Counted from the first letter of the stretch, positions 4,476 to 47,211 are shown. The stretch is DNA of 61,134 nt from Candidatus Micrarchaeota archaeon (GCA_040754495.1 JBFMCO010000046.1:1-61134); one strand, 5' to 3'. The notes: a model not told the origin generated them from the letters alone. Made by a program: numbers and translations.

Positions 4476-5327
4476 ATGATAGACCTGCACGCCCACACGA
4501 CCGCTTCCGACGGCACGCTCGGCTTCGATGAGCTTGTCACGGAAGCCGCCCGCGCGGGGCTGAGGGCAATAGCAATCACCGACCATGACAACGTGTGCAG
4601 CGCAGGCCTGATTACCGGCAACGAGCCGCTTGAGGTCATAGCCGGAGTGGAGCTCTCCGTATTCGACCGGGAAAGAGGCTATATGGACGTGCATGTTCTC
4701 GGCCTGTTCATAGACCCGAAACACAAAACCCTGAACTCAAAACTCGATACCCTCCAAGCGGAGCGCGAAGCCCAGAAGCGCGAGACCGTGGAGAAGCTGC
4801 GGGAACTCGGCTACGAAATCACATTCGAGGAGGTAAAGGCCGAGGCAAAAGGAGTCGCCGGCAGGCCGCACATCGCGAGAGTCCTGCTCAGGAAATACCC
4901 GAAAGAATTCGCCTCCCTCGCGTCCGTTTTCGACAAGCTCCTTGGCCGCGGAAAGCCTGCTTATATTGAGCGCGAGGCCGGATTCTCCCTCTCCGAGGCC
5001 GTCAGGCTCGTCCATGGCGCGGGCGGCCTCGCCGTCCTCGCGCACCCGTTCGTCTATCCGTACGATGCGGAAAAACTGCTCCGGGATTTCAAGGGGGCCG
5101 GGGGCGACGGCGTGGAGACATATTACGATTACATCAAGAATCGTCCTGAAGTCAAAACCACCAAAACCCAAAACTCAAAACTCACAACCCTCGCCAGGAA
5201 ACTGGCTGCCGGATGCGGCCTGCTGGAGTCCGGCGGGAGCGATTTCCACGGGGCGAACAAGGGCCAGGAGCTGGGGCAATTCGGCGCTCCGGATTGGATA
5301 TTGGATAGATTGAAGAAGGCGTTATGA
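4476..5327 (+). CDS. PHP-domain metal-dependent phosphoesterase (TrpH/YciV-like)
   Basis: DLHAHTTASDG, AITDHD, GRPHIA, LAHP and GGSDFHG. Confidence 0.9.
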   Translation: MIDLHAHTTASDGTLGFDELVTEAARAGLRAIAITDHDNVCSAGLITGNEPLEVIAGVELSVFDRERGYMDVHVLGLFIDPKHKTLNSKLDTLQAEREAQKRETVEKLRELGYEITFEEVKAEAKGVAGRPHIARVLLRKYPKEFASLASVFDKLLGRGKPAYIEREAGFSLSEAVRLVHGAGGLAVLAHPFVYPYDAEKLLRDFKGAGGDGVETYYDYIKNRPEVKTTKTQNSKLTTLARKLAAGCGLLESGGSDFHGANKGQELGQFGAPDWILDRLKKAL

Positions 5328-5367
5328 ATGAAAGTCCCTGCCTGTCATCGGTAAAATAATCCGGCGC

Positions 5368-6462
5368 TCATATCCTGACCGCACGTTCTGATTCAAGAAG
5401 CTGCAGAAGGGACTCGCAGCACATCCCGAATTTTTCGCCAGAGAAGCAGGCGCAGGATTCGTCCCTTCCCATATTCCTAAGTACATCCGCCAGCATTTTC
5501 CGGTATTCCGAGTAGTCTACTCCTGAGCCGATGCCGTACTCATATTCGTACACCTTGTAGGCCAGCCATCTCAGGTATAATGGAAGGAATTTCATGCTGA
5601 CCGCCTGCTCAGCGCGGCCAAGGCATTGCTTCGTAATTAGTCGCTGGTATGCCTCGTTTGTATCGTAAATTGCACGGAGCCCTTCCGGCAAAGAATCGGC
5701 GTAATCGGCTGCCGCGCCCGGATTTGCGAGGAATTCGGCCGCCTCCGCGGCATGGAGCACCCCTACAAACAGCCTTGTGTCCAGGAGCTCCGCCCGCCAG
5801 TGGGCGGTCCTTGCCGCGAGAAGGCTCTTAAAAGTCGTTCTTTTCTCCACGTATTGCCTCACTGCCCCCTCCGGAAGACCGCTGACGCGTCTGAGCGATT
5901 CCGTCTCGATGCGTTTCATCTCCTCCACTGTCATACGGTCAATCCAGGTGCACTGGAAAAAATCAGCCAGCATCCTCTCGGTTTCTTCAGGAGCATACGC
6001 CAGCCGTATTGCATCCGTCAGGTCGATTGCCGACCCCTGCGCCCTGCCCCTCGCTTCAGCATCGATCAGAACCTGCTCGGCTTCGTCCCATGGGAATATG
6101 GAATGCCACTCGAACCTCTCGCAGAACCTCAGCCTCGGCCTATCGTCTATGAGCGATTCCGCGATATAATCCCTGATTCCGAGCCGCTCTGCTTTTCCGG
6201 TCTTCTTTGCCAGCGCCCCTTCTGCCAGTTCGGTCTCATAGCCTTCCGCAAGGATGTAATCCAGCGGAGCGAACTGCGAAACCGCAGCGTCGATTGCGTT
6301 TGCCGCGTCACCGCCGTATTTTTTGAACTCGCCGCCGTGGCCGTGCATGAAGCCGAAAACAGTTATCGTCCTCCTTCCAGTGGCCGATTCCCGCTCAATT
6401 GCCGGAAAGCGGCCTGAGACCGGGCCACTGCCTGGCTGGAGGGGCACTTTCAGGGCGCTCAT
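5368..6462 (-). CDS. Hypothetical protein, possible TraB/Tiki-like fold with C-terminal SEC-C-like motif
   Basis: 364-aa ORF. Contains ITVFGFMHG...YILAEG and R..W.....LFVGVLH patterns, plus C-terminal CACFSGEKFGMCC. Confidence 0.6.
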   Translation of the reverse strand: MSALKVPLQPGSGPVSGRFPAIERESATGRRTITVFGFMHGHGGEFKKYGGDAANAIDAAVSQFAPLDYILAEGYETELAEGALAKKTGKAERLGIRDYIAESLIDDRPRLRFCERFEWHSIFPWDEAEQVLIDAEARGRAQGSAIDLTDAIRLAYAPEETERMLADFFQCTWIDRMTVEEMKRIETESLRRVSGLPEGAVRQYVEKRTTFKSLLAARTAHWRAELLDTRLFVGVLHAAEAAEFLANPGAAADYADSLPEGLRAIYDTNEAYQRLITKQCLGRAEQAVSMKFLPLYLRWLAYKVYEYEYGIGSGVDYSEYRKMLADVLRNMGRDESCACFSGEKFGMCCESLLQLLESERAVRI

Positions 6463-7154
6463 CTTGCGAACCCCTTTCTGTATACGGTCATTGCTCTTCC
6501 GTGCGGATCAACCGCAACTTTGCCGGAGAGCTTAAGCATCTCGCCCTTTTGAGAAATCCCGAACCCGGCGTTTTCCGCATTCTCGACTAATTTTCCCTTC
6601 TCCGCGTTCAGCCAGGCCTGGGTTTTCCTTACAAGCTCTTTCCAGTCCGGCCTCTGGAAGAAATCGCTGCGCTCAATCGTGGGCCGCCACGATTCATACT
6701 CACCATACCCCGGGTCCATTAGCTTTGTGCGGGCATAAGCCATCTCAAGGAGAATCGCCTGGTATTGCGGGATTGTCCCCGTGTCGTCCCCGAAATCCGG
6801 CACCCGTATGGCCGCGAGGCAGTGGAAAGCCATCAGTTGCGGAAGGATGGCAGCGACGTTGGTCGGAGACCTAAGATGCCTGTTGAAGAAGAGGTATTGC
6901 TCATCCAACCTCGCCATTATCCCTGCGAACTTCTCCATCTCGAAGAGCCGCAAGAGCTCGGATTCTTTCACGATGGCTGCACGGACTGCCACGCTGAAAT
7001 CGCCGAGTTCCACCGGAACGACGACCTTTCTTGATCTGCCGTATATGCGCCTCGCCGTTTCGAATGGGTCCTCGAGCGACAGTTTAAGCTCAATTGTGCA
7101 TTCCAGGCACTGCTCCAGGGCGAGCTGGGGCGTCATGGATAGTGTGAGTTGCAT
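6459..7154 (-). CDS. Hypothetical protein
   Basis: 231-aa ORF whose stop overlaps the start of the next gene by 4 bp. An AT-rich promoter-like region lies upstream. Confidence 0.65.
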   Translation of the reverse strand: MQLTLSMTPQLALEQCLECTIELKLSLEDPFETARRIYGRSRKVVVPVELGDFSVAVRAAIVKESELLRLFEMEKFAGIMARLDEQYLFFNRHLRSPTNVAAILPQLMAFHCLAAIRVPDFGDDTGTIPQYQAILLEMAYARTKLMDPGYGEYESWRPTIERSDFFQRPDWKELVRKTQAWLNAEKGKLVENAENAGFGISQKGEMLKLSGKVAVDPHGRAMTVYRKGFAR

Positions 7155-7324
7155 GGCAAATTAATGATACGGAGAAGCTATAAAGGTTTCATTTTATGGT
7201 TTCACGTGTTTTTCAAAGCCATCCGGCGCCCACGGCCCCCTCCTGCGGGAAAACCTTTTTAATAGGCCCAATTCATATCGTTTAACTGGTTCTCATAGCA
7301 TTAAAAGCGCCGGAGGAAATTTCC

Positions 7325-8875: not shown

Positions 8876-8923
8876 AACCCACCCATAGCAACAAATAAAA
8901 ACAGTGTGCCGCAATAGCTAATC

Positions 8924-10105: not shown

Positions 10106-10107
10106 GC

Positions 10108-11004
10108 TCAATGCTCTTTTTTCCTGTGCCTCAGCATGTGGCACATGTTCTGGCTCCGGCATGAGCAGCCGAAGGGCTCGAACTGCACGGTGGCGTGAGA
10201 GATGCCGAACTCGCGATGGAGCTTCTCCTCGATTTTCAGGGACATGGCCCTCGCATCGATAAGCTCCACGTTCTCCGTCTCCACGTGCATCATAGCGAAC
10301 ACGAATTCCGAGCACGTGCGCCAGACATGCACGTCATGCACGCCCTTAACCCCGCTCACGGACATCACCGAGGCCGTTATCTTCTCGGTCCCGGTCTCGT
10401 AAGGCGCGGACTCGAGCAGTATGGAGAGCGAGCTGCGCAGCAGCTTGTACGCGCTGAACGTGATTATGCTCGCGACAAGGAGGCTCACCGCGACGTCTAT
10501 GACGAACTCGCCGGTCAGCATGATGAGAACCGCCCCTATGATGACGCCGACGGAGGACAGGGCATCCCCGGCCGCATGGATGAATGCGCTGCGCACGTTC
10601 AGGTTCTCCTCGTGCTGGAGGTGGTACGCGACGTATATGTTGCCGGCAAGGCCGATCAGCGAGGTGAGCAGCATCGGAAGCCCATGGACCGGATAGCCGG
10701 CGCCAAAGCGCTGGAACGCCTCATAGGCTATCAGGCCGGCCATGAGAACCAGCAGCGTCCCGTTGAAAAGCGCCGCGAAGACCTCTGCCCTGTGGAACCC
10801 GAAGGTCCTCCGGTCGCTCGGCGCCCGGAGCGCGAGCCACATGGCCGAGAGCGACGCCCCGATTGCGAGGATGTCCGAGAACACGTGCGCGGAATCGCCA
10901 AGCAGCGCCAGGCTGTTCGAGTAATAGTATCCCGCGAGCTGGACAGCCAGCACGGCCGCGGTCACGATGAAGGCCCTGCCCATCTCCCTGATGCCGTCTT
11001 CCAT
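10108..11004 (-). CDS. Cation diffusion facilitator family transporter (CzcD-like)
   Basis: SLALLGDSAHVFSD, TFGFHRAE, NVRSAFIHAAGD, VHDVHVW and HATVQFE. Start moved to MEDGIRE (11004). Confidence 0.92.
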   Translation of the reverse strand: MEDGIREMGRAFIVTAAVLAVQLAGYYYSNSLALLGDSAHVFSDILAIGASLSAMWLALRAPSDRRTFGFHRAEVFAALFNGTLLVLMAGLIAYEAFQRFGAGYPVHGLPMLLTSLIGLAGNIYVAYHLQHEENLNVRSAFIHAAGDALSSVGVIIGAVLIMLTGEFVIDVAVSLLVASIITFSAYKLLRSSLSILLESAPYETGTEKITASVMSVSGVKGVHDVHVWRTCSEFVFAMMHVETENVELIDARAMSLKIEEKLHREFGISHATVQFEPFGCSCRSQNMCHMLRHRKKEH

Positions 11005-11005
11005 C

Positions 11006-12452: not shown

Positions 12453-12497
12453 GATTCTTAATACCTCTATAACTTTAATAAACGAGTTTTTGGTGAG

Positions 12498-16865: not shown

Positions 16866-17846
16866 ATGCGTTTTTTCCTGGTCATGGCCGCGGCCATGCT
16901 TCTGGGCTGCATGATGCAGGAAAGCCCCCCTGCGAACCCGCAGAATGTCACGGCAACGCCCGAAGGAAGCACTACTGCGCTCCAGAATACGTCTAACGCA
17001 ACCACCCCGCCCACGAACACATCGGAACTGAACGCAAACCTTCCGCAAAACGGCACGAACATAACAATCGCCACCTTCAACATCCAGATTTTCGGCGAAT
17101 CCAAGCGCTCGAAGCCCGAAGTGATGGACGTTCTCGCGAAGGCCGCGAGGCGCTACGATGTCATGGTGGTGCAGGAGCTGCGCGACGACACCGAGACGAC
17201 GCTCCCCATTTACGTGGAGAAAATCAATTCCCTGCCCGGCCCGCGCTATGATGCGGTCTCGAGCCCGCGCCTCGGCCGCACGTCCAGCAAGGAGAACTAC
17301 GCTTTTGTCTATAACACCGAGACCGTCATCCTGGTTCCCGGAAGCAACTATACCTTCGCCGACCCCCCGGCCGGTTCCAGCGCCGACATTTTCCAGCGCG
17401 AGCCCTTCATCGCCCGGTTCGTTTCCGGCGGCTTCGATTTCGCGCTCATCACGATCCACACCGACCCGGACGAGACGCCGCAGGAGCTGGACGATTTGCC
17501 CCTCGCCCTCGCGGACGCGCAGGCCCGTTTCCCGGACGAGGACGATTTCATAATGCTCGGGGACATGAACGCTGACTGCGCCTATCTCAGGCCGTCGCAC
17601 AATGTCTCGCTGCGCAACTACTCGTTCGTTTGGCTGGTGCCCGACGATGCGGACACCACCACGAAATCGACCGACTGCGCCTACGACCGCATCGTGCTCA
17701 TGAATTCGACAATGGAGGATTACTCCGGGCAGTGGGGGGTCTTCCGCTTCGATACGGAATACGGCCTGAACCAGAGCTTCACGGAAAGCGTGTCGGACCA
17801 TTACCCGGTCTGGGCAACGTTCAATAGCGACAGGGACACGGGCTAG
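16866..17846 (+). CDS. Secreted DNase I-family nuclease (EEP superfamily), lipoprotein-like
   Basis: LLGC lipobox-like signal and T/N/P-rich linker, followed by IATFNIQIFG, VQELRD, LGRTSSKENYAFVY, FQREPF, IHT, GDMNADC, CAYDRIV and VSDHYPV. Confidence 0.9.
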   Translation: MRFFLVMAAAMLLGCMMQESPPANPQNVTATPEGSTTALQNTSNATTPPTNTSELNANLPQNGTNITIATFNIQIFGESKRSKPEVMDVLAKAARRYDVMVVQELRDDTETTLPIYVEKINSLPGPRYDAVSSPRLGRTSSKENYAFVYNTETVILVPGSNYTFADPPAGSSADIFQREPFIARFVSGGFDFALITIHTDPDETPQELDDLPLALADAQARFPDEDDFIMLGDMNADCAYLRPSHNVSLRNYSFVWLVPDDADTTTKSTDCAYDRIVLMNSTMEDYSGQWGVFRFDTEYGLNQSFTESVSDHYPVWATFNSDRDTG

Positions 17847-18223
17847 TTGCACGCCCGCATTATCGCCTCTTCGAGAGGCCTCTGCTCAGAAAGCAGGCGG
17901 CCCGGGCTGATGCCCTCCACCCTGAAGCTGGCGGTTGCCTTGCTGTGCCTGAACACGACGTCGTGGCCGGGTTCGAGCGCGTCCTTGAGCATGCTCCAGC
18001 CGAGCTTCGCCGCGACTGTTGCCGGGTCGTCCCTCAGGCCGGCCCGATTCTGCACGTTCCTGAGCACCAGACTGACCGAGCAGTTCATCTCGGGGCATAT
18101 GGCGTGGAGCAGGACGTATTTCGACCATTTCATGCGGTTTACGTCGTCGGCTTTCTCGAGCTCGATGAGTACGGGCTCCTTCCCCACCATGGAGCCCTTT
18201 ACGGTCTTTTTGCGCCGAGGCAT
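17843..18223 (-). CDS. Hypothetical protein
   Basis: The likely start is MPRRKK (18223). The longer track ORF runs through tRNA-Tyr and the repeats. Confidence 0.6.
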   Translation of the reverse strand: MPRRKKTVKGSMVGKEPVLIELEKADDVNRMKWSKYVLLHAICPEMNCSVSLVLRNVQNRAGLRDDPATVAAKLGWSMLKDALEPGHDVVFRHSKATASFRVEGISPGRLLSEQRPLEEAIMRACN

Positions 18224-18273: not shown

Positions 18274-18315
18274 GGAACCCAAAACCGGAAACAGAAAACT
18301 GGAAACCCGAAACCG
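18274..18315. repeat. Degenerate 7-bp tandem array, 6 units
   Basis: GGAACCC AAAACCG GAAACAG AAAACTG GAAACCC GAAACCG. Confidence 0.85.
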
Positions 18316-18330
18316 GTTGCCGGAAAAATA

Positions 18331-18466
18331 TCCCGTCGGCCTGACTTGAACAAGCAACCTTCCCGTATCCACTCGTAAAAACCGAGGAAACCAAACTACA
18401 GCGGGACGCTCTGCCATTACCCCTTGGCGATTGCGAAAGCAGCCGCCAAAATTGAGCTACGACGGG
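18331..18466 (-). tRNA. tRNA-Tyr(GTA) with two introns (18417-18451, 35 nt, D-loop 15/16; 18367-18395, 29 nt, canonical 37/38)
   Basis: The spliced 72-nt cloverleaf is CCCGTCG TA GCTC AATGGCA GAGC G TCCCG CTGTAGA CGGGA AGGTT GCTTG TTCAAGT CAGGC CGACGGG A. The D-loop intron has a clear BHB (GCTC/GGGT helix with AAT bulges). Confidence 0.9.
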
Positions 18467-18537
18467 TGACACGCCCCACGCTGGGGGCAAATATCACATA
18501 CTAACGCGCCTGAAGTCCTTAAAAAACTGCCGTCGCA

Positions 18538-18586
18538 GGAACAGGGAACCGAAAACCCGAAACCGGAAACCCGGAACCCGAAACCC
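18538..18586. repeat. Degenerate 7-bp tandem array, 7 units
   Basis: GGAACAG GGAACCG AAAACCC GAAACCG GAAACCC GGAACCC GAAACCC. Confidence 0.85.
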
Positions 18587-21736: not shown

Positions 21737-21778
21737 GCCCCCGGAACCTATTCAAAACCCAAAACCCATAACCAGCCC

Positions 21779-22837
21779 ATGCGCACCGGAACAATCGACC
21801 TCCCATTGCATGGCGGCAAGTGCCCGCCGTGGCTTTTCTGGCGCATGCGCTCCCTTGCCCGCGAGATTTCGCGCATAATCATCGACAGCTATGGCACGAA
21901 AGAGCTTCTGTCCCGCCTTGCCGACCCGATGTTCTTCCAGGCGTTCAGCTGCGCCATAGGCTTCGACTGGCACTCGTCCGGGACGACCACCACCGCATGC
22001 GGGGCGCTCAAGGAGGCGCTGACTCCCGAAATGGGCGTGATGGCTGCCGGGGGCAAGGGGAGGGCGTCAAGGAACGCGCTCGATGAGCTTTCCTCAAGGT
22101 GCCAAATCTTCGGCCTCGACAGCGCTCCGCTCGTGAAAGCGAGCGTGATGAGCGCTAAAGTGGACGGCTGCTGCATACAGGACGGCTACGAGCTTTACCA
22201 CCATTCCTTCTTTTTCGACGAGAAAGGCAACTGGGCTGTCGTGCAGCAGGGGCTGGATGATGCAAGCGGATACGCGCGCCGCTACCACTGGCTGAACGCA
22301 AGCAGTTTCGTGGACGACCCTCCTGACAAAATCGCCGGCGTCCCGAAGCCCGAAACCCTGAACCTGGTCAGCAAAGACAGCGCGGAGGCGCGGAAAATCT
22401 CGGTGGAACTCGTCAACGACAACCCCGTCCACCTGCGCAAGTATCTAACAGGCCAGACCACCCTGCTGGACGACCACCGCCGCCTCCCCCAAAGGCACGA
22501 AATCCTGCGCTGCGACCTCACCGAGCGCGACTGGAAGCTCCTTAATGACGCCTACGATCTCCAGCCGCAGAATTACGAGGAGCTTGTCTGCCTGCGCGGA
22601 ATGGGGAAGAAGAAGTTGCGCGCTCTTGCGCTGCTTTCAAAGCTCATCCACGGGACTGAACTCGACTGGAAGGACCCGGTGAAATACTCATTCGCCCACG
22701 GAGGCAAGGACGGCATCCCATATCCCGTGGACCGCGAGTCGTACGACCATACGATACGGTTTTTGCGCGACGCCATCGACGGAATCGGGCTGAAGGAAAA
22801 GAGCGGTGCGCTTGTCCGGCTGGCTGCGATTTCATGA
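21779..22837 (+). CDS. DUF763 family protein
   Basis: GTIDLPLHGGKCPPWLF, IGFDWHSSGTTT, IQDGYELYHH, WAVVQQG, RRYHW and FAHGGKDGIPYPVDR. Confidence 0.9.
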   Translation: MRTGTIDLPLHGGKCPPWLFWRMRSLAREISRIIIDSYGTKELLSRLADPMFFQAFSCAIGFDWHSSGTTTTACGALKEALTPEMGVMAAGGKGRASRNALDELSSRCQIFGLDSAPLVKASVMSAKVDGCCIQDGYELYHHSFFFDEKGNWAVVQQGLDDASGYARRYHWLNASSFVDDPPDKIAGVPKPETLNLVSKDSAEARKISVELVNDNPVHLRKYLTGQTTLLDDHRRLPQRHEILRCDLTERDWKLLNDAYDLQPQNYEELVCLRGMGKKKLRALALLSKLIHGTELDWKDPVKYSFAHGGKDGIPYPVDRESYDHTIRFLRDAIDGIGLKEKSGALVRLAAIS

Positions 22838-24211: not shown

Positions 24212-24316
24212 GGATTGGCTCGGTGCCCGAACCTTATAAATGTGCTTTAAGGGTTCCGGCCCAGTTCCCAAACAGGAAACCGGGGCCGGAAACCCCACCA
24301 CTCCTACCCACCAGCA

Positions 24317-32934: not shown

Positions 32935-33573
32935 TCAGGCGACCCTCACGGGCTTGCCCATCGTCAGCTTCACGAAGACCGAGCGGATGTTGCCTTCGTT
33001 CACCCTCGCCTTCACCGCATCATATACGCTCTCGGCGTTCTCGACCAGGTCCTCGGTCTCCATGGCCTCGGTCCCGATGAGCGCCTGGGCGGTCGGCAGG
33101 TATTTCCCCTTGGACACTATCCTCACGCTCTTCTTCGAGCGCTCGAGCAGCTCCTTTATGTTGCCCGTCATGGGCTTGGGGAGCTTGCCCCGTTTGCCGA
33201 GCGACTGGCCGAGCGATTTTGCGACCACGCCCATCAGGTTCGGCTGCGCGAGCAGGAAATATCCGTCTGCCAGCTCCTTGACCTTGGCCGGCTGCGCCCA
33301 GGACGCGATGGAATCCGGCGTGATTATGAGATCCGCCCCCGCCCTCTTCGCATCGTCGGCCGTGGTCCCCTCCGCGAATACCGCGGACCTGAGCTCCTTG
33401 CCGCCTTTGCCCTTGGGAAGCACTATATCCAGGTTGAGCCTGTTCTCGCTCTTGTTGAAGTCGATGCTCCTGATGTTGATGATGAGCTCGACGCTCTGCC
33501 TGAACTTCCTCTTTCCTTTCTCTTCAAGGGCCTTCTTGATGGCCTCTACAAGCTTTTTCCTGTCCATAAACAA
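32935..33573 (-). CDS. rpl1: 50S ribosomal protein uL1
   Basis: KRKFRQSVELIINI, LGKRGKLPKP and SVFVKLTMGKP. Confidence 0.95.
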   Translation of the reverse strand: MFMDRKKLVEAIKKALEEKGKRKFRQSVELIINIRSIDFNKSENRLNLDIVLPKGKGGKELRSAVFAEGTTADDAKRAGADLIITPDSIASWAQPAKVKELADGYFLLAQPNLMGVVAKSLGQSLGKRGKLPKPMTGNIKELLERSKKSVRIVSKGKYLPTAQALIGTEAMETEDLVENAESVYDAVKARVNEGNIRSVFVKLTMGKPVRVA

Positions 33574-33725
33574 GCCCTCCTACCTGGATGCCCGGCAGCC
33601 CGCAACGGGTTTCCGGTTTCCAGTAGTGATATCGGGTGAGAGTTATTGTATGGGGGTATTATTATAAAGCTATTCCAGGGCCGGCGTCGTCCCGGGCGGC
33701 TCAGGTCCGCCCTGCGGGCACCCGC

Positions 33726-34217: not shown

Positions 34218-34371
34218 GCAAAAGAATAAATGTGGTAAAATATTTAAAGATGAGTTATTTCTTGGCCGGCGGCTCGCATATCGGGCCGCCGAAGCAGTCC
34301 CACACCGGCAGGGCGATTTCCCCGCAGGCCCTCTCAATGACACGCGGCACTGGCGGCCAGGAATCCACAGC

Positions 34372-34399
34372 CGGTTTCGGGTTTCCGGTCTCCCGTTTC
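34372..34399. repeat. Degenerate 7-bp tandem array, 4 units (T-rich orientation)
   Basis: CGGTTTC GGGTTTC CGGTCTC CCGTTTC. Confidence 0.7.
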
Positions 34400-34445
34400 G
34401 CGTCGTGGAGGCCTGGCTTGGATTCGGGGGGCTTGCGTCCGTTCA

Positions 34446-34559
34446 TCAGAGTTCACCGACCCTTCTTTTCATCTTCCTCTTGAGCCTCTTGCGCCTTTTC
34501 TTGACCCATTTCCAGCGCATGCGGTTCTTCTTCTTCCATTTTCTCGGTTTTGCACCCAT
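34446..34559 (-). CDS. rpl41e: Ribosomal protein eS32 (eL41), 37 aa
   Basis: [37 protein letters not shown] matches the archaeal PRKWKKKxRMRWKW pattern. It is below the ORF-track size cutoff. Confidence 0.88.
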
Positions 34560-34707
34560 GAGTCCACCTGAATGAATGACTGGCGATAATTCGTGGACTG
34601 ATAATCAATAGTTCAACTTAAATATGTTTCGGGTTGTTTTTCTGACCGGGCCGACCTAGATTCCCCGGCAGGACCGGTCCGACTGATTTAGCATGGAGGG
34701 GTTTTCA

Positions 34708-36142: not shown

Positions 36143-36144
36143 AA

Positions 36145-36563: not shown

Positions 36564-37487
36564 ATGCAGCACGCGCTTTTCCTGAAGGATTTCGACTCGA
36601 AGTGGATTGAATCCGTTGTGGAGCTTGCGCTCGATATCAAGAAGAGCCCTGAAAAGTACTCGCAGGCGCTTTCGCGCAAGTCGCTCGCCATGATATTCCA
36701 GAAGTCGTCCACGCGGACGCGCATCTCGTTCGAGACCGGGATGACGAAGCTCGGCGGCCATGCAATCTTCATAGACTGGAGGACGACGCAGATAGGGCTC
36801 GGGGCGGTCGCGGACGAGGCCAAAGTCATCTCCCGCTACGTGGATGCCATCATGGTGCGCCCGATGCGCCATGCCACGGTGGCAGAGTTCGCGAAAGCCT
36901 CGCGCGTCCCCGTGATAAACGGGCTGTGCGAGAAGTACCATCCCTGCCAGGCGCTCGCGGACATCCTGACGATAAGGGAGAAGCTCGGGAAGCTGGAAGG
37001 GGCCAGGGTCGTCTATGTCGGCATAGGCAACAACGTCAGCAACTCCCTTTCGGTCGCCTGCGCGAAGGCAGGCTGCGACTTCACGCTCTGCGTGCCCGAG
37101 AAGGACCCGGACAGCCTTGATTCGGAGCAGCAGGAGATGCTCGACAAATCAGGCCATTACCGCGAGGAGCCGGACATAAAAAATGCGGTCAGGGGCGCGG
37201 ACATCCTCTACACGGACACCTGGGTGAACATGGAGTTCTTCAACGACCCGAAATTCGCGCAGGAAAAAGCCCGGCGCGAGAGGGTGTTCATGCCATACCA
37301 GCTCAACAAGGCGATGCTCGATCTGGCCGGCCCGCAGGCGCATTCGATGCACGACATGCCCGCGCACATCGGCTACGAAATCGACGAATACGCGCTCCGC
37401 GGGCCGCGCTCGCTCGCATTCGACCAGGCGGAGAATCGGATGTGGGCGCAGATGGCCCTGCTCATCAAGCTCCTTGGCAAAGGATAA
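36564..37487 (+). CDS. argF: Ornithine carbamoyltransferase
   Basis: FQKSSTRTRISF, PVINGL, HPCQALAD, GIGNNV, YTDTW and QAENR; the cluster also contains carAB. Confidence 0.88.
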   Translation: MQHALFLKDFDSKWIESVVELALDIKKSPEKYSQALSRKSLAMIFQKSSTRTRISFETGMTKLGGHAIFIDWRTTQIGLGAVADEAKVISRYVDAIMVRPMRHATVAEFAKASRVPVINGLCEKYHPCQALADILTIREKLGKLEGARVVYVGIGNNVSNSLSVACAKAGCDFTLCVPEKDPDSLDSEQQEMLDKSGHYREEPDIKNAVRGADILYTDTWVNMEFFNDPKFAQEKARRERVFMPYQLNKAMLDLAGPQAHSMHDMPAHIGYEIDEYALRGPRSLAFDQAENRMWAQMALLIKLLGKG

Positions 37488-37502
37488 GGAGGCAGACACG
37501 GG

Positions 37503-37550
37503 CGGTTTCCAGTCTCCCGTTTCCGGTTCGGGTTGCCCGTTTGCGGTTTT
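37503..37550. repeat. Degenerate 7-bp tandem array, about 7 units (T-rich orientation)
   Basis: CGGTTTC CAGTCTC CCGTTTC CGGTTC GGGTTGC CCGTTTG CGGTTTT. Confidence 0.8.
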
Positions 37551-38503: not shown

Positions 38504-38513
38504 GTTGCGGGCG

Positions 38514-38541
38514 GAAACCGAAAACTGGAAACCGGAAACCC
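38514..38541. repeat. Degenerate 7-bp tandem array, 4 units
   Basis: GAAACCG AAAACTG GAAACCG GAAACCC. Confidence 0.8.
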
Positions 38542-38611
38542 CCCCGGCCCCACCGATACCACATCAGCAGTATTATAAACTCCGCCATGCCCTATAATAT
38601 TCTGATTCTTC

Positions 38612-39691
38612 ATGGGCAAAGACTTGCGAGCAGCATTAGTGTTGAAAGACGGCACCGTGCTGCAGGGCCTCGGTTTCGGCGCAAAGGCCGAGACGATGGG
38701 CGAGCTGGTCTTCAACACGTCCATGACGGGCTACCAGGAGGCCCTCACCGACCCGAGCTACGGCGGGCAGATCCTGCTCATGACCTACCCGCTTGTCGGC
38801 AATTACGGCACGAACGACAATGACCGGGAGAGCGGCAGAATCCACGCCTCGGGTTTCGTAATCCGGGAGCTGAGCGAGGATGCAGAGCACCGGGACTCGA
38901 AGCGCACGCTTGATTCCTTCCTGAAGGAGCACGGGATTCCGGGTATATCCGGCATAGACACCCGCTACGTCGTGAGGCGCATCCGCGACAAGGGGGTGAT
39001 GCCTGCGATTCTCGCGGTCTCGGACCGCGAAGCAGACCTCAACCCGAAAAAGCTGCTCGAGCGCCTGGCATTCGACTACTCGGCGATTGATTTCGTCTCG
39101 AAAGTAACTACGAAAGAGCCGAAGGTCTTCGGGAAGGGTGGAAAAAGAAAGCGCGTCGCGCTGATAGACTACGGCGTCAAGATGGGCATCGTCCGCCGCC
39201 TCGTGGCGCTCGGATGCGAGGTGCACCTGCTCCCGAGCTTCAGCACCTCTAAAGACGTCAAGGCAATCGAGCCGGACGGAATCCTGCTCTCGAACGGGCC
39301 GGGCGACCCGGCGATTCTCACGGGCGCGCACAAGGCTATACGCGAGCTTGAAGGCTACCGGCCGATTTTCGGCGTGTGCCTCGGGCACCAGCTCCTTGCC
39401 CACGCGTTCGGGGGCGGCACCTACAAGCTGAAGTTCGGCCACAGGGGCTCGAACCACGCGGTGATGGAGCTCAACACGAAAAAGATTGCGATAACCACCC
39501 AGAACCACGGGTTCGCGGTCGGGAAGATGCCAAAGGGATTCGAGCTGACGCATGTCAACGTCAACGACAGGAGCGTGGAGGGGATGAGCAGCGAAACAAA
39601 GCGGATATTCAGCGTCCAGTACCACCCCGAGGCGTCGCCAGGGCCGCACGATTCGTTCGGCCTGTTCGACAGGTTCATGAAAATGATGTGA
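38612..39691 (+). CDS. carA: Carbamoyl-phosphate synthase small subunit
   Basis: VFNTSMTGYQE, DPSYGGQ, GIDTR, SNGPGDP, GVCLGHQ and QYHPEASPGP. Confidence 0.97.
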   Translation: MGKDLRAALVLKDGTVLQGLGFGAKAETMGELVFNTSMTGYQEALTDPSYGGQILLMTYPLVGNYGTNDNDRESGRIHASGFVIRELSEDAEHRDSKRTLDSFLKEHGIPGISGIDTRYVVRRIRDKGVMPAILAVSDREADLNPKKLLERLAFDYSAIDFVSKVTTKEPKVFGKGGKRKRVALIDYGVKMGIVRRLVALGCEVHLLPSFSTSKDVKAIEPDGILLSNGPGDPAILTGAHKAIRELEGYRPIFGVCLGHQLLAHAFGGGTYKLKFGHRGSNHAVMELNTKKIAITTQNHGFAVGKMPKGFELTHVNVNDRSVEGMSSETKRIFSVQYHPEASPGPHDSFGLFDRFMKMM

Positions 39692-39701
39692 GAGTGATTT
39701 T

Positions 39702-40226
39702 ATGGCAGACATGAGCGAGGAGGAAGTTGTGAAGAAGGCCAACGAGGATGCGAACAACGTGAAATGCAGCTTCTGCGGCAACGAGGCTTACTGCGAGCCG
39801 TGCAAGAACGAGCCGGCGAAGATGGCGGGATTCGAGCACATGTGCTTTGAGTGCCACCAGCGCATGGGGCAGGTGCCCGAGAACGTGCGCGACAAGACGC
39901 ACCTGTGCATCCCGCCGGAGAAGCTGCAGGAGAACTTCGAGCGGTTCATGAACGACGTCACGCAGCGCGCTTTCGACGACCTCTGGAACGCGGAGAAGAA
40001 GAAGCTGAAGGAGATGTCGAGGCAGGAGCTTGCGCAGGCGTCGTTCTTCGAGGGCGCGAGCTTCATGTTCCACCTGATGCAGCGGATGTCCCAGCAGCCG
40101 GCAGCCGGTCCCCAGCCTCCGGTTTCGGGCAACCGGGAGCCGGAGACCGGAGAAACGAAGCCTGGGAACAGTCCACCGCGAGCCGAAGGCGAGCGCAGTG
40201 AACAAAAACGGGAAACCGCGGAGTGA
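39702..40226 (+). CDS. Hypothetical protein with CxxC/CxxC/CxxC cluster and a heptamer-encoded C-terminal tail
   Basis: CSFC...CEPC...CFECH; inserted between carA and carB; codon style is host-like. Confidence 0.7.
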   Translation: MADMSEEEVVKKANEDANNVKCSFCGNEAYCEPCKNEPAKMAGFEHMCFECHQRMGQVPENVRDKTHLCIPPEKLQENFERFMNDVTQRAFDDLWNAEKKKLKEMSRQELAQASFFEGASFMFHLMQRMSQQPAAGPQPPVSGNREPETGETKPGNSPPRAEGERSEQKRETAE

Positions 40227-43200
40227 AGCAGAAGTGAAAGACAAACCGAAGAAAGTCCTCGTCATCGGCTCGGGGCCGATAGTGATAGGCCAGTCCGCGG
40301 AGTTCGACTACTCCGGCGCGCAGGCATGCCGGGCGCTGCGCGAGGAGGGGATAACCGTGGTGCTTGCCAACTCGAACCCGGCCACCATCCAGACCGACAA
40401 GGACACCGCGGACATCGTCTATATCGAGCCCCTCACCGTCCCTGTGCTCGAGAAAATCATAGAGCGGGAGAAGCCGCAGGGCATCATCGCGACAATGGGC
40501 GGCCAGACTGCCCTGAACCTCGCGATGGAGCTCCACCGCAAGGGCATCCTCGCGAAGCACGGCGTGAGCTTCCTCGGGACCGGCGCGGAGGCGATAGACG
40601 CTGCCGAATCCAGGGAGCGCTTCAACGGCCTCATGCGGAAGCTCGGCATGCCGATTCTTCCCGGCAAGGTCGTGAACGACGTCGAAAGCGGTGTGGGGGC
40701 GGCGCGGGAAATCGGCTACCCGGTTATCGTGCGCCCGTCATTCACCCTCGGTGGGACCGGAGGGGGCACGGTCTACGGCGAGGAGGAGCTGCGGAAGCTC
40801 CTTGAGCTGGCCCTGCGCCTGAGCATGACCGGCGAGGCGCTTGTAGAGAAAAGCGCCATCGGCTGGGGCGAGTTCGAATACGAGGTGGTGCGGGACTCCT
40901 TCGGGAACGCGCAAATCATCTGCAACATGGAGAACATCGACCCGATGGGCGTACATACCGGCGAAAGCATAGTCATCGCGCCGTCCCAGACGCTCAGCGA
41001 CGCGGACCACCAGGTTTTGCGCGATGCTGCCCTGAAAATCGCGGACGGCATAGGAATCGAGGGCGGATGCAACGTTCAGTTCGCAATGGACCAGGATAGC
41101 GGCAATTTCACGGTAATCGAGGTCAACCCCCGCCTCTCGCGCTCATCCGCGCTCGCATCCAAGGCGACCGGCTGCCCCATCGCCAGGGTCGCGACCAAAA
41201 TCGCGCTCGGCCATCCGCTCCCGGAGATAAGGAATGCCATAACCGGCACGTCGGCCGCGTTCGAGCCGGCGCTGGATTACGTCGTAGTCAAGATTCCCCG
41301 CTGGCCCTTCGACAAGTTCCCGAAGACCTCGCGGGTAATCGGGACCCAGATGAAGAGTACCGGCGAGGTCATGGCCATCGGCAGGACGTTCCAGGAAGCC
41401 CTGAACAAGGCAATCCGGAGCCTCGAGATAAGGCTCCCGAAGCAGATAAACCCGGACGAGCACCTGTTCCCTCCGACAGACCTGCGCGCCTTCGCCATCT
41501 TAGATGCCCTGAGGCGCGGCAGGGGCGTGGAGGAGCTGCACAAAATCACAAGGATACACCGCTGGTTCCTGCGCCGCATGGAGCGCATCGTCGCCCTTGA
41601 GAAGCGCATCGCTTCCTCGAAGATGACAAAGGAACTCATGCTGGAAGCAAAGCGGGCGGGATTCCCGGACGCGCAGATTGCCGCCCTCACGAAAAGCGAC
41701 GAGATGTCCGTGCGCAAGGCGCGCAAAGCCTTCGGCATCCTCCCCACCTACAAGATAGTGGATTCCTGCGCAGGGGAGTTCGAGGCCATCACGCCGTATT
41801 ATTATTCGACTTACGAGACCGAGAATGAAGCCGCCCCTCAGCCGGAAACACGAAACGCGGAACTGGGAACCGGAAGCGGGAAACCGGGAACCGCCGAAGG
41901 GGGGCCTGAGCCGCAGAAGAAAATCGTGGTCATCGGCTCGGGGCCAATCCGCATCGGGCAGGGCATAGAATTCGACTACTGCTGCTCGCATGCGGCATTC
42001 GCCCTCCGCGACATGGGTTACCGGAGCATCATGGTCAACAACAACCCCGAAACGGTCAGCACGGACTTCGATTCCAGCGACCGCCTGTATTTCGAGCCCC
42101 TGACATTCGAGGACGTCATGAACATCGTGGAAAACGAGTCTCCCGAAGGCGTGATTGTCCAGCTCGGCGGCCAGACGAGCCTGAATCTCGCGCACAAGCT
42201 CGCGGATGCAGGGGTGAGGATACTTGGCACCGGCATCGAGGGCATAGACATAGCCGAGAACCGCGAGCGCTTCAGGGAGCTTGCGACAAGGCTCGGCATA
42301 CCGCAGCCCGAGAATGGCACTGCAACGAGCGAGGAGCAGGCGCTGGATGCCGCCTCCAGAATCGGCTACCCCGTAGTAGTGAGGCCGAGCTACGTGATTG
42401 CCGGGCGCGCGATGGAAATCGTGCGCAGCGACGAGGAGCTGCGCCGCTACATGCACGAAGCCGTGGAAGTGAGCGGGAAGAGGCCGGTGCTCATAGACCG
42501 CTACATAGACAACGCCATAGAGTGCGAAGTGGACGCTGTGAGCGACGGGACCGAGGTGCTGATAGGCGGGCTTATGGAGCACATCGAGCCAGCGGGCGTG
42601 CATTCCGGGGATGCGAACATCGTCCTTCCATCCATGCGCCTGACGGAGGCCGAAAAGGCCACAATAACCGGTTACACCGGGAAAATCTCCCAGGCGCTCG
42701 GCGTGGTAGGCTTCGTGAACATCCAGTTCGTGGTCAAGGACAAGGTCTACATCCTGGAAGCCAACCCCCGCGCGAGCAGGACCGTTCCCTTCGTCAGCAA
42801 GGCAATAGACGTGCAGCTCACGAAGCTGGCGGTAGCATCGATGCTCGGAAAGAGGCTCCCCAAAGTCAGGACCGAGCTGGACCACTTCGCCGTGAAAAGC
42901 GTGGTCTTCCCGTTCCTCAAGCTCCTCGGAACGGACATAAAGCTCGGGCCTGAGATGCGCAGCACGGGCGAGACGATGGGCATAGGGCGGACCTTCGAGA
43001 TGGCCTACTACAAGGCCCTTCTCGCGGCAGGCATCCGCCTCGAGGACGGAAAGGAGCATTGCGCTTTCATCAGCCTGCGGGACGAGGACAAGAAGGAAAT
43101 GCCCAAGCTCGCCGAGCTGCTCCGGAAGCTGGAATTCAGGATATACGGAACCATGGGAACCGTGGGCTCGGTGCCGGGTGCCATCCCGATTCCAAAAATA

Positions 43201-43440
43201 GGGCAGGGGCATCCGGACGCCGTGGAGCTGATAGAGTCCGGCACGGTTACGCTGGTCATAAACACGCCGACAAGGGGCGGGGCGGCGCACACGGACGGAT
43301 TCCGGATACGGCGCTCATCCATCCTGAGCGGCATCCCATGCATCACCAACATAAGCACGGCGCAGGAGCTTCTCAAGGCCATGCTCGAATTAAGGAAGAA
43401 GGAGCTGGACATCAGGCGGGCGGACGAATACTCGAAATGA
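40198..43440 (+). CDS. carB: Carbamoyl-phosphate synthase large subunit
   Basis: VIGSGPIVIGQSAEFDYSG, NSNPATIQTD, HTGES, EVNPRLSRSS, a second half starting IGSGPIRIGQGIEFDY, EANPRASRT and an MGS domain. Confidence 0.97.
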   Translation: MNKNGKPRSEAEVKDKPKKVLVIGSGPIVIGQSAEFDYSGAQACRALREEGITVVLANSNPATIQTDKDTADIVYIEPLTVPVLEKIIEREKPQGIIATMGGQTALNLAMELHRKGILAKHGVSFLGTGAEAIDAAESRERFNGLMRKLGMPILPGKVVNDVESGVGAAREIGYPVIVRPSFTLGGTGGGTVYGEEELRKLLELALRLSMTGEALVEKSAIGWGEFEYEVVRDSFGNAQIICNMENIDPMGVHTGESIVIAPSQTLSDADHQVLRDAALKIADGIGIEGGCNVQFAMDQDSGNFTVIEVNPRLSRSSALASKATGCPIARVATKIALGHPLPEIRNAITGTSAAFEPALDYVVVKIPRWPFDKFPKTSRVIGTQMKSTGEVMAIGRTFQEALNKAIRSLEIRLPKQINPDEHLFPPTDLRAFAILDALRRGRGVEELHKITRIHRWFLRRMERIVALEKRIASSKMTKELMLEAKRAGFPDAQIAALTKSDEMSVRKARKAFGILPTYKIVDSCAGEFEAITPYYYSTYETENEAAPQPETRNAELGTGSGKPGTAEGGPEPQKKIVVIGSGPIRIGQGIEFDYCCSHAAFALRDMGYRSIMVNNNPETVSTDFDSSDRLYFEPLTFEDVMNIVENESPEGVIVQLGGQTSLNLAHKLADAGVRILGTGIEGIDIAENRERFRELATRLGIPQPENGTATSEEQALDAASRIGYPVVVRPSYVIAGRAMEIVRSDEELRRYMHEAVEVSGKRPVLIDRYIDNAIECEVDAVSDGTEVLIGGLMEHIEPAGVHSGDANIVLPSMRLTEAEKATITGYTGKISQALGVVGFVNIQFVVKDKVYILEANPRASRTVPFVSKAIDVQLTKLAVASMLGKRLPKVRTELDHFAVKSVVFPFLKLLGTDIKLGPEMRSTGETMGIGRTFEMAYYKALLAAGIRLEDGKEHCAFISLRDEDKKEMPKLAELLRKLEFRIYGTMGTVGSVPGAIPIPKIGQGHPDAVELIESGTVTLVINTPTRGGAAHTDGFRIRRSSILSGIPCITNISTAQELLKAMLELRKKELDIRRADEYSK

Positions 43441-43459
43441 GAGAAAATATTAACTTTAC

Positions 43460-44173
43460 ATGCCAAAGCCGCTTATGTTAGGCACAAGCAGAGTAATGGC
43501 AATCTCCATCGCGGCCCTCCTGTTTCTTTTGGGATGCACAGGAGTCAGCGAAGGCGACAAGTGTGTCGGTCAGACCGACATCACGATTAACGGCGTCACG
43601 AAAGTCTGCGTGAATGGCACGCTGACCGGCTCCTGCACCGTTAAGGGGCAGGTTTACTCGGAATCCACCGACTCGAGGATAGTCTGCGAGGGCGGCGTCT
43701 GGGTCAGCAAGGACAAGGAATCCGGAAGCCAGCCGGCAGGGACTGAAGGTCCGGGAACCGGACAGGCTGCGGAGGCCGAAGAGAAGTGCGCCGGAAAAGC
43801 ATTCGCGACAGCGAACGGCGTCACCTCTGCCTGCGTGGGCGGCGTGTGGACGACCGAATGCGCCAGCGAGGGCGAGGTCTACACCGTATCCGAGGCATTC
43901 CAGACCAAGGTCGTCTGCAAGGGCGGAATCTGGGTGGAGGAGGAGCTTGCGCCCGGGGAAAATGTGACCATCGCGCCCGAGGAACCCTCCGTCGGGGAGG
44001 AGCCCTGCATGGGCACGTCGTGGGAGTCTTCAGACAATATCACGAAGGCCTGCGTGGGCGGCGTGTGGACGACCGAATGCGCCAGCGAGGGCGAGGTGTA
44101 CGACGTTTCAGACTTCCTCGAAACAAAAATCGTGTGCGAGGGCGGCGTCTGGGTCAGCAAGGACCTGGGATAG
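43460..44173 (+). CDS. Secreted lipoprotein-like protein with three internal Cys-containing repeats
   Basis: LLGC signal. The unit C..(V/G)CVxG..T..C...G.VY......T..VCxGG.W occurs three times. Confidence 0.75.
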   Translation: MPKPLMLGTSRVMAISIAALLFLLGCTGVSEGDKCVGQTDITINGVTKVCVNGTLTGSCTVKGQVYSESTDSRIVCEGGVWVSKDKESGSQPAGTEGPGTGQAAEAEEKCAGKAFATANGVTSACVGGVWTTECASEGEVYTVSEAFQTKVVCKGGIWVEEELAPGENVTIAPEEPSVGEEPCMGTSWESSDNITKACVGGVWTTECASEGEVYDVSDFLETKIVCEGGVWVSKDLG

Positions 44174-44197
44174 CCCCCTTCACGTTTTTTCTTTTTT

Positions 44198-45352: not shown

Positions 45353-45409
45353 TCTCCCCCGCGGAAAGCGGCGCGCCATGCTAAATAATCCTTTGCCCCG
45401 GCGGGCTGT

Positions 45410-46717: not shown

Positions 46718-46721
46718 AAAA

Positions 46722-47045
46722 TCAGACGTAAGCCTTGGCCTTCTGGGCGTACTCGGCCACCATCTTCTTCTCCTCGCGGTCCTTGATAAGCCCGCAGAAG
46801 ACGTGGTTCTTGATGGGCACCATGACGAGCAGCAGGCCGTCGAAGGAAATCTCGACCTCGTTCTGCGAGTCGTCCATCCTCTTCATAAGGGCGTCCGACA
46901 TGTTCGCGACAGAGGCGAGCAGTCCGGCGCTGAGGTCGTTCAGGGCTATCGTGGACGCGACGGCCACGCCGTCGGAGCGGACCACCGCGCCCCCGATGCC
47001 CTTCCCTTTCATCTCGTTCAGTATCGCTTCAAGCTCACCAGCCAT
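46722..47045 (-). CDS. Roadblock/LC7 domain protein
   Basis: 107 aa with a helix, then GGAVVRSDGVAVAS, a helix, beta strands and a terminal helix. Confidence 0.75.
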   Translation of the reverse strand: MAGELEAILNEMKGKGIGGAVVRSDGVAVASTIALNDLSAGLLASVANMSDALMKRMDDSQNEVEISFDGLLLVMVPIKNHVFCGLIKDREEKKMVAEYAQKAKAYV

Positions 47046-47117
47046 TGAAAACCCTCTCTGCCATTCTTAGTGGGGTTTTCCATCCCCATCTACTGCACGA
47101 CCCAAGTTCCATATCAT

Positions 47118-47211
47118 CAGTCTCCTGCACCCGGTTCCCGGCATCCTGTCATGGGTTTCCGGTTTTGTGTTCCGCGTCCCGACAAAACCGGGAACCGGAG
47201 ACCGGAAACCA
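47118..47211. repeat. Head-to-head 7-bp arrays forming an inverted repeat/hairpin
   Basis: A T-rich arm (GGGTTTC CGGTTTT GTGTTCC) is followed by an A-rich arm (AAAACCG GGAACCG GAGACCG GAAACCA). 47154-47166 pairs with 47184-47196 at 12 of 13 positions. Confidence 0.8.

Follow-up and report, generated by a model that had tools for sequence, protein, structure and literature searches.

The 61,134-nucleotide contig JBFMCO010000046.1 (positions 1-61134, assembly GCA_040754495.1) of a Candidatus Micrarchaeota archaeon, called the window hereafter, carries short tandem arrays of a degenerate heptamer that reads GAAACCG on one strand and CGGTTTC on the other. The arrays lie in spacers and inside genes, among them the gene for CarB, and they recur throughout the genome to which the window belongs as contig C46 (G000; 1.63 Mb in 72 contigs, 80% complete). 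Here we describe their anatomy, polarity, location and distribution among relatives, and tentatively propose that they are the footprint of a motif-specific process of DNA insertion.

Heptamer arrays in the window

The original prediction listed degenerate period-7 tracts between positions 5153 and 47211. Every tract was recovered, seven as clear arrays and four as weak or degenerate ones; only the tract at 24269-24295 was not convincing (one of four units, lag-7 identity 0.50). Unit counts in the window are counts of units that fit RRAAC within one phase. Tandem Repeats Finder (TRF) independently placed period-7 calls starting at 5161, 18282, 18553, 21753, 34371, 38512, 41859 and 47185. The three-unit pattern RRAACNN-RRAACNN-RRAAC has 15 matches in the window, whereas 100 shuffles that preserve dinucleotides average 0.01 and never reached 15; the density is above that of shuffled sequence, as had been anticipated.

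The first site along the contig is an AAAACYC-type array of about four units on the plus strand (5161-5190, in the tract 5153-5192; TRF call, three of five units in phase). It lies in sense in a PHP-domain gene (4476-5327; Pfam PHP) and encodes a KTQNSKL-type peptide that is not conserved in the orthologs of the relatives G010 and G007. A six-unit plus-strand array at 18274-18315, all six units of which fit RRAAC, is found between the start of the gene at 17843-18223 (minus strand) and a probable intron-bearing tRNA, with a degenerate reverse arm, GGTTGTTTGTGGGTTC, in its 5' flank. The longest array in the window, seven plus-strand units at 18538-18586 (seven of seven fitting), lies just past a TATA-like box (18519-18526); it matches a model of clustered regularly interspaced short palindromic repeats (CRISPR) at chance level only (E 0.29, 19.3 bits, gathering score 35). 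The tRNA-like stretch between these two arrays (18325-18476, minus strand) was recognized by eye from an acceptor stem (CCCGUCG...CGACGGG) and is broken up by introns; neither ARAGORN nor Rfam called a tRNA there. A similar intron-bearing tRNA followed by arrays occurs on contig C52 of G000 and at the orthologous locus in G010, where the intron itself bears GAAAC/GTTTC hairpins. Among the settings originally predicted, intergenic and coding positions were thus borne out, and tRNA-flanking positions were not confirmed by either program.

A short three-unit AAAACCC array on the plus strand (21753-21773; TRF call, two of three units) is a weak member of the family in the spacer 21737-21844. Also weak is the site at 33606-33620 (minus strand), a two-unit remnant joined by GGATGCC-type units in the 5' leader of the minus-strand gene at 32935-33567; an array occupies the equivalent place in the relative G003 and none does in G022. 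The divergent spacer 34218-34707 holds a four-unit reverse array (34372-34399, minus strand, three of four units), which the orthologous G022 spacer lacks. Downstream of the gene at 36564-37487 lies a weak and degenerate reverse array (37503-37550, minus strand, two of six units, lag-7 identity 0.61), with a degenerate orthologous array in G022 and none in G021 or G011. The four-unit array at 38514-38541 (plus strand, four of four units) sits upstream of the promoter of a carA-like gene (38639-39691), and the G022 spacer there is equally long but array-free. In the C-terminal part of the next gene (39702-40226), we observed a weak, degenerate CGGNNNC period-7 tract (40092-40175, minus strand, lag-7 identity 0.53); orthologs align with the N-terminal part of the protein only. 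This 174-residue gene overlaps the start of carB (40198-43440) by 29 nt, and the last 40 residues of its product, which come from the degenerate tract, are not conserved among relatives. Within carB itself there is a 69-nt in-frame insert (41842-41910, plus strand), whose seven heptamers span 41845-41893 with six of seven units fitting RRAAC. Finally, the spacer between a KaiC-like gene (47214-47918, minus strand) and the minus-strand gene at 46722-47045 is filled by a dyad (47118-47211), in which a reverse CGGTTTC-type arm that degenerates outward is followed by a forward arm (47184-47211). Its predicted fold has an energy of -31.3 kcal/mol (z -5.4).

Genome-wide occurrence and unit structure

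The original suggestion of a genome-wide period-7 scan was borne out. We used a permissive scan together with a strict one, in which three or more RRAAC cores had to follow one another at lag 7. The strict scan found 113 such chains in G000 and zero or one at each other lag from 4 to 12. Likewise, TRF reported 167 arrays of period 7 vs 51-63 at periods 6, 8 and 10. A four-unit pattern, our measure for counts across genomes, had 62 matches in G000 vs two for the control, the same pattern read backwards. By the permissive scan, G000 holds 182 arrays, or about 153 elements once neighbours are merged, and their distribution over the strands (86 plus, 96 minus) agrees with the claim that both orientations occur.

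A single motif family accounts for 99 of the 167 TRF arrays of period 7. Its position-agnostic, TRF-based profile gives the unit R-A-A-A-C-N-S, with conservation of 94, 84, 91, 97 and 98% over the first five positions. Position 6 is free (C in 68%), and position 7 is G in 65% and C in 35% of units, never A or T; the information per position spans 0.5 to 2.1 bits. Array length ranges from three to seven units with a sharp mode at four in G000. Identical adjacent units make up 3.6% in G000 vs 5.0 +/- 0.9% under shuffled unit order, and 2.6% vs 4.0% for the null in G010. Slippage, which had been put forward as a possible generator of the arrays, finds no support in this comparison, as the observed identity lies below the random-order expectation. 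No fixed order of unit variants was found among arrays, and distances between closest arrays equal those obtained after shuffling units among arrays, save a few local duplicates. A master element was looked for and not found.

Other units accompany the main family. A second heptamer family, GGATGCC / CGGCATC (TRF canonical form ATCCGGC), counts nine arrays and often continues GAAACCG arrays; its sites are found genome-wide, including 33580-33600 and 47139-47152 in the window and 10773-10800 in locus L253 of a further relative. More degenerate G-N-N-N-C-Y-G units often prolong GAAACCG arrays on the outer side. At one orthologous site, G010 has an arm of CGGCACA type where the arm of G000 is of CGGTTYC type, and one G010 array shows a local amplification in which the variant unit CGGCACA stands three times.

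Polarity of paired arrays

About a third of the arrays form dyads, in which (CGGTTTC)n always precedes (GAAACCG)m on the top strand. In G000, 24 adjacent reverse-then-forward pairs are separated by at most 20 nt and six more lie within 100 nt; the opposite order occurs zero times within 100 nt. Because either arrangement of a pair is its own reverse complement, this asymmetry of polarity is real. The same rule emerges when at least two reverse units within 40 nt of an array are counted: they are found on the 5' side of 64 of 182 arrays and on the 3' side of none in G000, and beside G010 arrays on the 5' side in 32 and on the 3' side in 2 of 124 cases. The gap between the arms varies from 0 to 36 nt without any phase preference. 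In both genomes the inner edge of the arrays is abrupt, and the outer (3') flank shows a GNNNCCG periodicity fading over two to three units.

The dyads fold well, with a mean z of -4.1 vs shuffled sequence over 28 dyads. However, the identity of the two arms at variable positions is 0.57, compared with 0.61 +/- 0.02 for re-paired arms, and there is no covariation. The folding therefore arises solely from the shared core. Selected hairpins, whether of RNA or DNA, and fold-back copying were rejected on this ground, and the original idea that the arrays act as RNA structure was not upheld.

Two dyads in G000 (C4:13039-13070 and C40:17843-17878) have in common a conserved centre of 32-36 nt, GGCTGCGAATATTG...AAACTGCT.TTTCGTCC, which hints at a particular small element or a promoter lying between the arms; the dyad on C40 is located directly upstream of the gene for the DNA polymerase PolX. 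On contig C22 (87332-87560), a 143-bp tandem duplication bears a dyad and the word ATGATGGCAGTTTATGTCTGGGAAAGTCCGGA. Words related to it follow arrays elsewhere, at C4:13099-13130 and on C6 upstream of glmS, with one at the glmS start.

Location relative to genes and inserts in coding sequences

The location of the arrays was classified with a crude gene caller of our own, which called 89.5% of G000 coding, so the location classes contain some error. By this classification, 118 of the 182 arrays (65%) are intergenic, in the roughly 10% of G000 that is non-coding (binomial p 3e-69). Arrays occupy 8.5% of divergent, 9.2% of tandem and 14% of convergent spacers, and their density is 1.4 per kb in convergent vs 0.44 per kb in divergent spacers. 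An orientation bias relative to transcription, raised in the original prediction, was not observed, with 37 arrays facing a gene start in sense and 35 in antisense; the relation of orientation to local GC skew or gene-strand bias was not significant either. The lack of orientation bias and the similar occupancy of the spacer types argue against a role of the arrays as promoters or terminators. We also considered the arrays as scars at rearrangement breakpoints or islands and rejected this idea, as synteny breaks were found in G010 at 5 of 33 array spacers vs 65 of 500 others.

Inside predicted genes we found 57 arrays in G000 and 40 in G010, about 31-32% of all arrays. They carry GAAACCG on the sense strand in a ratio of 50:7 in G000 (p 4e-9) and 40:0 in G010 (p 2e-12). 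Because three times seven is 21, every sense frame gives the same cyclic peptide of seven residues, of ETGNRKP type, and the antisense strand reads as an RFPVSGF-type peptide. The sense bias is as expected if arrays arise in both orientations and the hydrophobic RFPVSGF-type reading is purged. An array of 7n nt shifts the frame unless its length is also a multiple of three; all coding arrays that have survived keep the frame and are fixed inserts, with no sign of phase variation.

The clearest case in the window is CarB, in which the insert of 69 nt, or 23 codons, encodes PETRNAELGTGSGKPGTAEGGPE and lies between domain D3 and the second pre-ATP-grasp domain (Pfam), in the linker of the two halves of the protein. 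This insert is unique to G000 and is missing in more than 20 congeners and in out-groups; two further relatives without it have CarB proteins of 1046 and 1048 residues. When the remaining coding arrays were aligned with their orthologs in G010 and G007, many in-frame inserts at the array positions proved to be confined to G000 or to G010. A few arrays are shared by descent; in one case G000 and G010 have nearly identical copies and G007 a shortened one. The CarB insert and the numbers of arrays within predicted genes support the claim that the repeats are tolerated even inside essential genes.

Orthologous sites and distribution among relatives

The comparison of orthologous loci proposed with the original prediction showed that arrays are present or absent by species, as with the CarB insert, the G022 and G003 spacers described above and the spacer between the KaiC-like gene and its 107-residue neighbour. 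The latter spacer measures 0-27 nt in six species and holds a dyad in G000 (168 nt), G010 (61 nt) and the relative with locus L253 (94 nt). In this last relative, synteny across the KaiC-TldD region is interrupted only by the insertion of a HEPN / nucleotidyltransferase pair resembling a toxin-antitoxin system (L253 11159-11838). Arrays tend to recur at orthologous spacers: a G010 array was found at 8 of 28 spacers with a G000 array vs 15 of 435 array-free ones (odds ratio 11, p 2e-5), and within spacers of 100-300 nt at 5 of 10 vs 9 of 102 (p 0.003). At the level of strains, a metagenome scan with CarB gave only distant relatives (57% identity or lower), and the nearest public relatives of the KaiC-like gene beside the dyad are 82-84% identical.

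Among 41 relatives, the four-unit pattern has 62 matches in G000, 36 in G010, 29 in G012, 27 in G003 and 23 in G034; six of the remaining genomes have 2-8 matches and the rest none, with 0-2 matches for the reversed control. In a quick maximum-likelihood tree of CarB, each array-rich genome is placed with array-free sisters. We examined two relatives over larger stretches: the 1.16 Mb examined of G010 contain 124 arrays, which agree with those of G000 in their most frequent size and in the dyad rule, and the 1.06 Mb examined of G007, corresponding to 75% of that genome, contain none. A survey of 401 genomes of the phylum found matches in 46 of 76 genomes of the window's own family (f1), with 0-78 per genome, and in none of 30, 17 and 94 genomes of the families f6, f9 and f13. 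The arrays are nearly restricted to f1; array-rich outliers in other families are G034 and G145, and the motif is the same in distant genera and in two other families. The four-unit counts, the CarB tree and the phylum survey agree in describing a dispersed, lineage-specific repeat family that was gained and lost repeatedly, in line with the spreading repeat system originally suggested.

Search for a responsible gene

No gene family that co-occurs with the arrays, as the original prediction had imagined, was found among the candidates that we followed: PolX, the integrase, a 570-residue protein, reverse transcriptase (RT), Ku and the Y1 transposase all failed. PolX (HHH_8, palm, thumb and PHP domains; C40:15991-17727, minus strand, in G000; loci L164-L171) is patchy in the order, being present in 9 of 41 genomes. 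It was rejected because it occurs in the array-free genomes G011, G013, G019, G025, G027, G028 and G033, and no PolX turned up in the array-rich G003, G012 and G034. The tyrosine recombinase of the phage-integrase family at 826-1587 in the window (minus strand) is one of three paralogs in G000 and belongs to a family found in 8 of 41 genomes; this family was rejected since it is also present in the array-free G001, G014, G005 and G024. The 570-residue protein of unknown function is present in 18 of 24 congeners and does not track the arrays.

A small ORF (open reading frame) of about 230 residues that matches RVT_1 was observed in G010 (C4:75017-75436; L077 14801-15490, minus strand), G007 (C8:32547-32978) and others, and the one in G010 has no homolog in G000. 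It could be either a remnant or an RT-like gene that stands alone. RT-like ORFs are also found in the array-free G007, G016 and G024 and do not track the arrays. Genome subtraction (genes in G000 and G010 that are not at the syntenic place in G007) left 32 candidates, a result weakened because only 75% of G007 was covered.

A possible insertion process and its alternatives

We favour, tentatively and with somewhat less than even confidence, the view that the arrays are the footprint of a motif-specific, polar DNA-insertion process in one Micrarchaeota family, whose products are filtered by selection. The lineage-specific in-frame inserts, the sense bias of coding arrays (50:7 and 40:0), the indifference to gene orientation and the polarity of dyads with unphased arms fit this view best. 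At a nick or break, or at a central start point, short runs of units would be written outward on both strands to give 5'-(CGGTTTC)n (GAAACCG)m-3', and one-sided events would leave single arrays. The RAAAC core would be copied faithfully and positions 6, 7 and 1 loosely, so that each array would be a fresh draw of unit variants. Existing arrays would probably be preferred substrates and thereby stay recognizable at orthologous sites while their flanks randomize, and a lineage that lost the activity would lose its arrays. Selection would act afterwards: arrays would persist in spacers of any type, while in genes only those would remain that insert in frame into loops, linkers or termini and have the hydrophilic E/T/G/N/R/K/P strand as sense. 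The data directly support the anatomy and polarity of the arrays, the lack of any signature of slippage, copying or hairpins, the lineage-specific inserts and the orientation filter; from these we infer breaks or nicks as entry points, templated synthesis and a lineage-specific enzyme. That the process is an RT-free activity healing breaks or nicks, which writes degenerate heptamers onto 3' ends or outward and leaves telomere-like scars chromosome-wide, some of them as new stretches of peptide in essential proteins, seems unlikely to us.

Several points weigh against an insertion process. Position 7 is strictly G or C, more like a constraint of recognition than a mutational pattern, and the gradient in the outer flanks is modest, with C at position 5 in 50-52% vs a background of about 30%. 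Neither RVT_1 nor Y1_Tnp (PF01797) was found in the 80% complete G000, and control genomes matched the latter; Ku was not found in the genus. PolX, the integrase and the 570-residue protein fail to track the arrays among the 41 genomes, the subtraction rests on three quarters of G007, and the location classes depend on the crude gene caller. Purifying selection on a function would explain the recurrence at orthologous spacers, with the core kept and the flanks not, equally well. Together with the strict G or C at position 7 and the wholesale absence of arrays in sister lineages, this recurrence fits a protein that reads RAAAC every 7 bp equally well.

The main alternative, possible if rather doubtful, is that the arrays are cooperative sites for such a small dimeric DNA-binding protein, either a regulator of the ribbon-helix-helix type or a nucleoid or partition protein, where one RAAAC core is read per 7 bp and selection keeps the arrays as long as the protein is present, with decay after its loss. 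The position-specific conservation (91-98% for A3, A4 and C5, with position 6 free), the characteristic size of about four units and the strictness with which neighbouring arrays are oriented to each other are what this explanation expects. So are the recurrence at orthologous spacers across about 25% protein divergence, with variable positions diverged, the loss from sister lineages, and the seeming avoidance of perfect tandem identity, which would suit sites that need stability. It has difficulty with the third of arrays that are coding inserts, among them that in the CarB linker, since a binding site would serve no evident purpose there, and with the variable, out-of-phase spacing of dyad arms, which is a poor fit to cooperativity across the dyad. 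Moreover, promoters are not preferred and orientation relative to genes is indifferent, no binder tracking the arrays was found among PolX, the 570-residue protein and the integrase, and the copy number grades without a break between 1 and about 80 across genomes, which resembles a spreading repeat more than it does a regulon. This explanation and an insertion process are not exclusive, since a factor that both recognizes and extends existing arrays would explain everything seen. A role in RNA, where long imperfect hairpins of dyads or phased U3 or A3 tracts of single arrays would serve as terminators, stabilizers or sites for proteins such as stacked heptameric Sm-like rings, appears decidedly unlikely. 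The dyads fold far better than shuffles, the density per kb is highest in convergent spacers, several arrays lie in 5' leaders or between operon genes, and the U-rich arm comes first in the dyad on either strand. However, the arms do not covary, and among single arrays between co-directional genes sense (37) and antisense (35) are balanced, so that the transcript would be U-rich or A-rich equally often. In addition, a hairpin followed by a U-tract was never seen, array-free sisters cope with spacers of 0-27 nt at equivalent sites, and coding inserts are common.

The dispersal of some 150 mostly intergenic and often palindromic elements, patchy across lineages, is also reminiscent of non-autonomous mobile elements, either of the repetitive extragenic palindromic (REP) or REP doublet forming hairpins (REPIN) type or miniature inverted-repeat transposable elements (MITE), in which each dyad would be a pair of inverted ends moved by a transposase encoded elsewhere or in the unassembled 20% of the genome. 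There are a few near-identical dyad copies, each at two loci (C4:14175-14235 and C56:21325-21385; C4:13011 and C40:17815), and the isolated rich genomes G034 and G145 outside the family could reflect horizontal transfer of a mobilizing gene. We nevertheless hold this very unlikely, because the longest word shared between flanks equals the null of shuffled pairs, leaving no target-site duplication beyond chance, conserved termini and a full-length consensus were not found, arrays are mutually as unlike as random combinations of units, and their outer ends fade without a defined terminal repeat. Nor was a Y1 transposase found in G000, and the integrase family does not track the arrays. A target-site duplication was suspected at the CarB insert, where CCT[C/G]AGCCG flanks looked like one, and was rejected when flanks genome-wide proved equal to shuffled pairs. 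Heptanucleotide microsatellites, generated by slippage with subsequent point mutation and commoner under weaker repair, are highly improbable. The period of seven is retained while units vary, CGGCACA occurs three times in one G010 array, and array-rich genomes are scattered over the CarB tree, as slippage would allow. Against this, one motif dominates the period-7 repeats and recurs in distant genera and two other families, identical neighbours are rarer than chance, decay is uneven over the seven positions, the sizes peak at four units instead of decaying geometrically, and slippage offers no explanation for the strict dyad polarity. Unit identity, position profile and dyad polarity thus largely refute the microsatellite explanation.

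Significance and relation to known systems

If a dedicated activity writes the arrays, it would represent a new kind of DNA transaction in archaea; if they are read by a protein, organisms whose regulation is hardly characterized would have a binding system that spans the genome. The break-healing explanation, if true, would mean that DNA synthesis has a further class, templated or guided by a protein, that has not been described, and that the evolution of protein linkers has a new source. Since all sense frames give a hydrophilic seven-residue cycle, proteins like CarB can acquire linkers and tails from arrays. Related species span 0 to about 180 arrays per genome and thus offer a natural experiment for locating the responsible gene. 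In practice, the arrays are a lineage marker and may confuse gene callers and short-read assembly.

The original prediction compared the arrays with the short tandemly repeated repetitive (STRR) sequences of cyanobacteria, which come closest among the systems described. STRR heptamers were reportedly described in heterocystous cyanobacteria by Mazel and colleagues in 1990. In STRR arrays a small set of fixed heptamers, CCCCAGT, TTGGTCA and CAACAGT for STRR1-3, is repeated almost perfectly. Like the arrays described here, they are heptanucleotide tandems, dispersed about a hundred-fold, mostly intergenic and lineage-restricted, with no known function or generator; they have been mentioned as a fingerprinting target (PMC5088731). 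The parallel holds for dispersed heptamer arrays and fails for motif and anatomy. The RAAACNS motif differs, and among the rarer consensus units listed by TRF, AACCAGC (one array) is one base off the TTGGTCA class and none is of the CCCCAGT or CAACAGT class. Unlike in STRR, neighbouring units differ here and only the RAAAC core and the G or C at position 7 are kept. Strict dyad polarity, frequent in-frame coding inserts and a DPANN archaeal host are likewise features that the STRR description does not include.

REP sequences, bacterial interspersed mosaic elements (BIME) and REPINs, with their Y1 transposases (REP-associated tyrosine transposases, RAYT), are likewise short and abundant, lie between genes, most of all convergent ones, are frequently palindromic and have a patchy occurrence among relatives. 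In contrast to them, Y1_Tnp was not found, there is no consensus of element length, the arms lack covariation, and our arrays have an internal 7-nt periodicity with a third of them in coding sequence. Interstitial telomeric sequences are said to be laid down at eukaryotic break-repair sites (Nergadze and colleagues, in 2004), and the archaeal virus AFV1 (Acidianus filamentous virus 1) has clusters of telomere-like TTGTT at its ends. Resemblances to telomeric and interstitial repeats are the short degenerate units, a T/G-rich strand running 5' to 3' towards the junction, a head-to-head arrangement like that of end-to-end fusions and, at orthologous loci, insertions that are clean and specific to a lineage. 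As telomerase-type synthesis would produce, the units are degenerate and their polarity is fixed (24 vs 0 pairs, with a sharp inner and a fading outer edge). The arrays differ from telomeric repeats in that RT was not found in G000, the RT-like ORFs of relatives do not track them, they comprise only three to seven units and nothing shows an involvement of chromosome ends.

Among DNA-binding sites, heptads are bound by the omega repressor (ribbon-helix-helix) of plasmid pSM19035, which tolerates them in certain relative orientations only, and MetJ binds arrays of met boxes. Both kinds of operator consist of degenerate units of 7-8 bp in tandem arrays of 2-10 with limited relative orientations, as is also seen here. 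However, those operators number only a handful, lie at promoters and have contiguous units, unlike the roughly 150 sites described here, which have variable gaps between arms, no promoter preference and members in genes. Microsatellite contingency loci share with our arrays the ability of short tandem units to sit in coding sequence, but here neighbouring units are not identical and there is no sign of phase variation. CRISPR arrays are distinguished by repeats of 24-48 nt, unique spacers and a leader, unlike the contiguous 7-nt units observed here.

We found no description of heptamer arrays in Micrarchaeota in the open-access full-text literature. To our knowledge, dispersed short repeats of obscure origin exist in several prokaryotes, and none combines these features. 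The arrays belong with the dispersed short tandem-repeat families, and their anatomy is unusual: an invariant 5-nt core in units that are almost never repeated exactly, an absolute rule for the mutual orientation of two arrays, and the regular occurrence of in-frame inserts in conserved proteins together set them apart.

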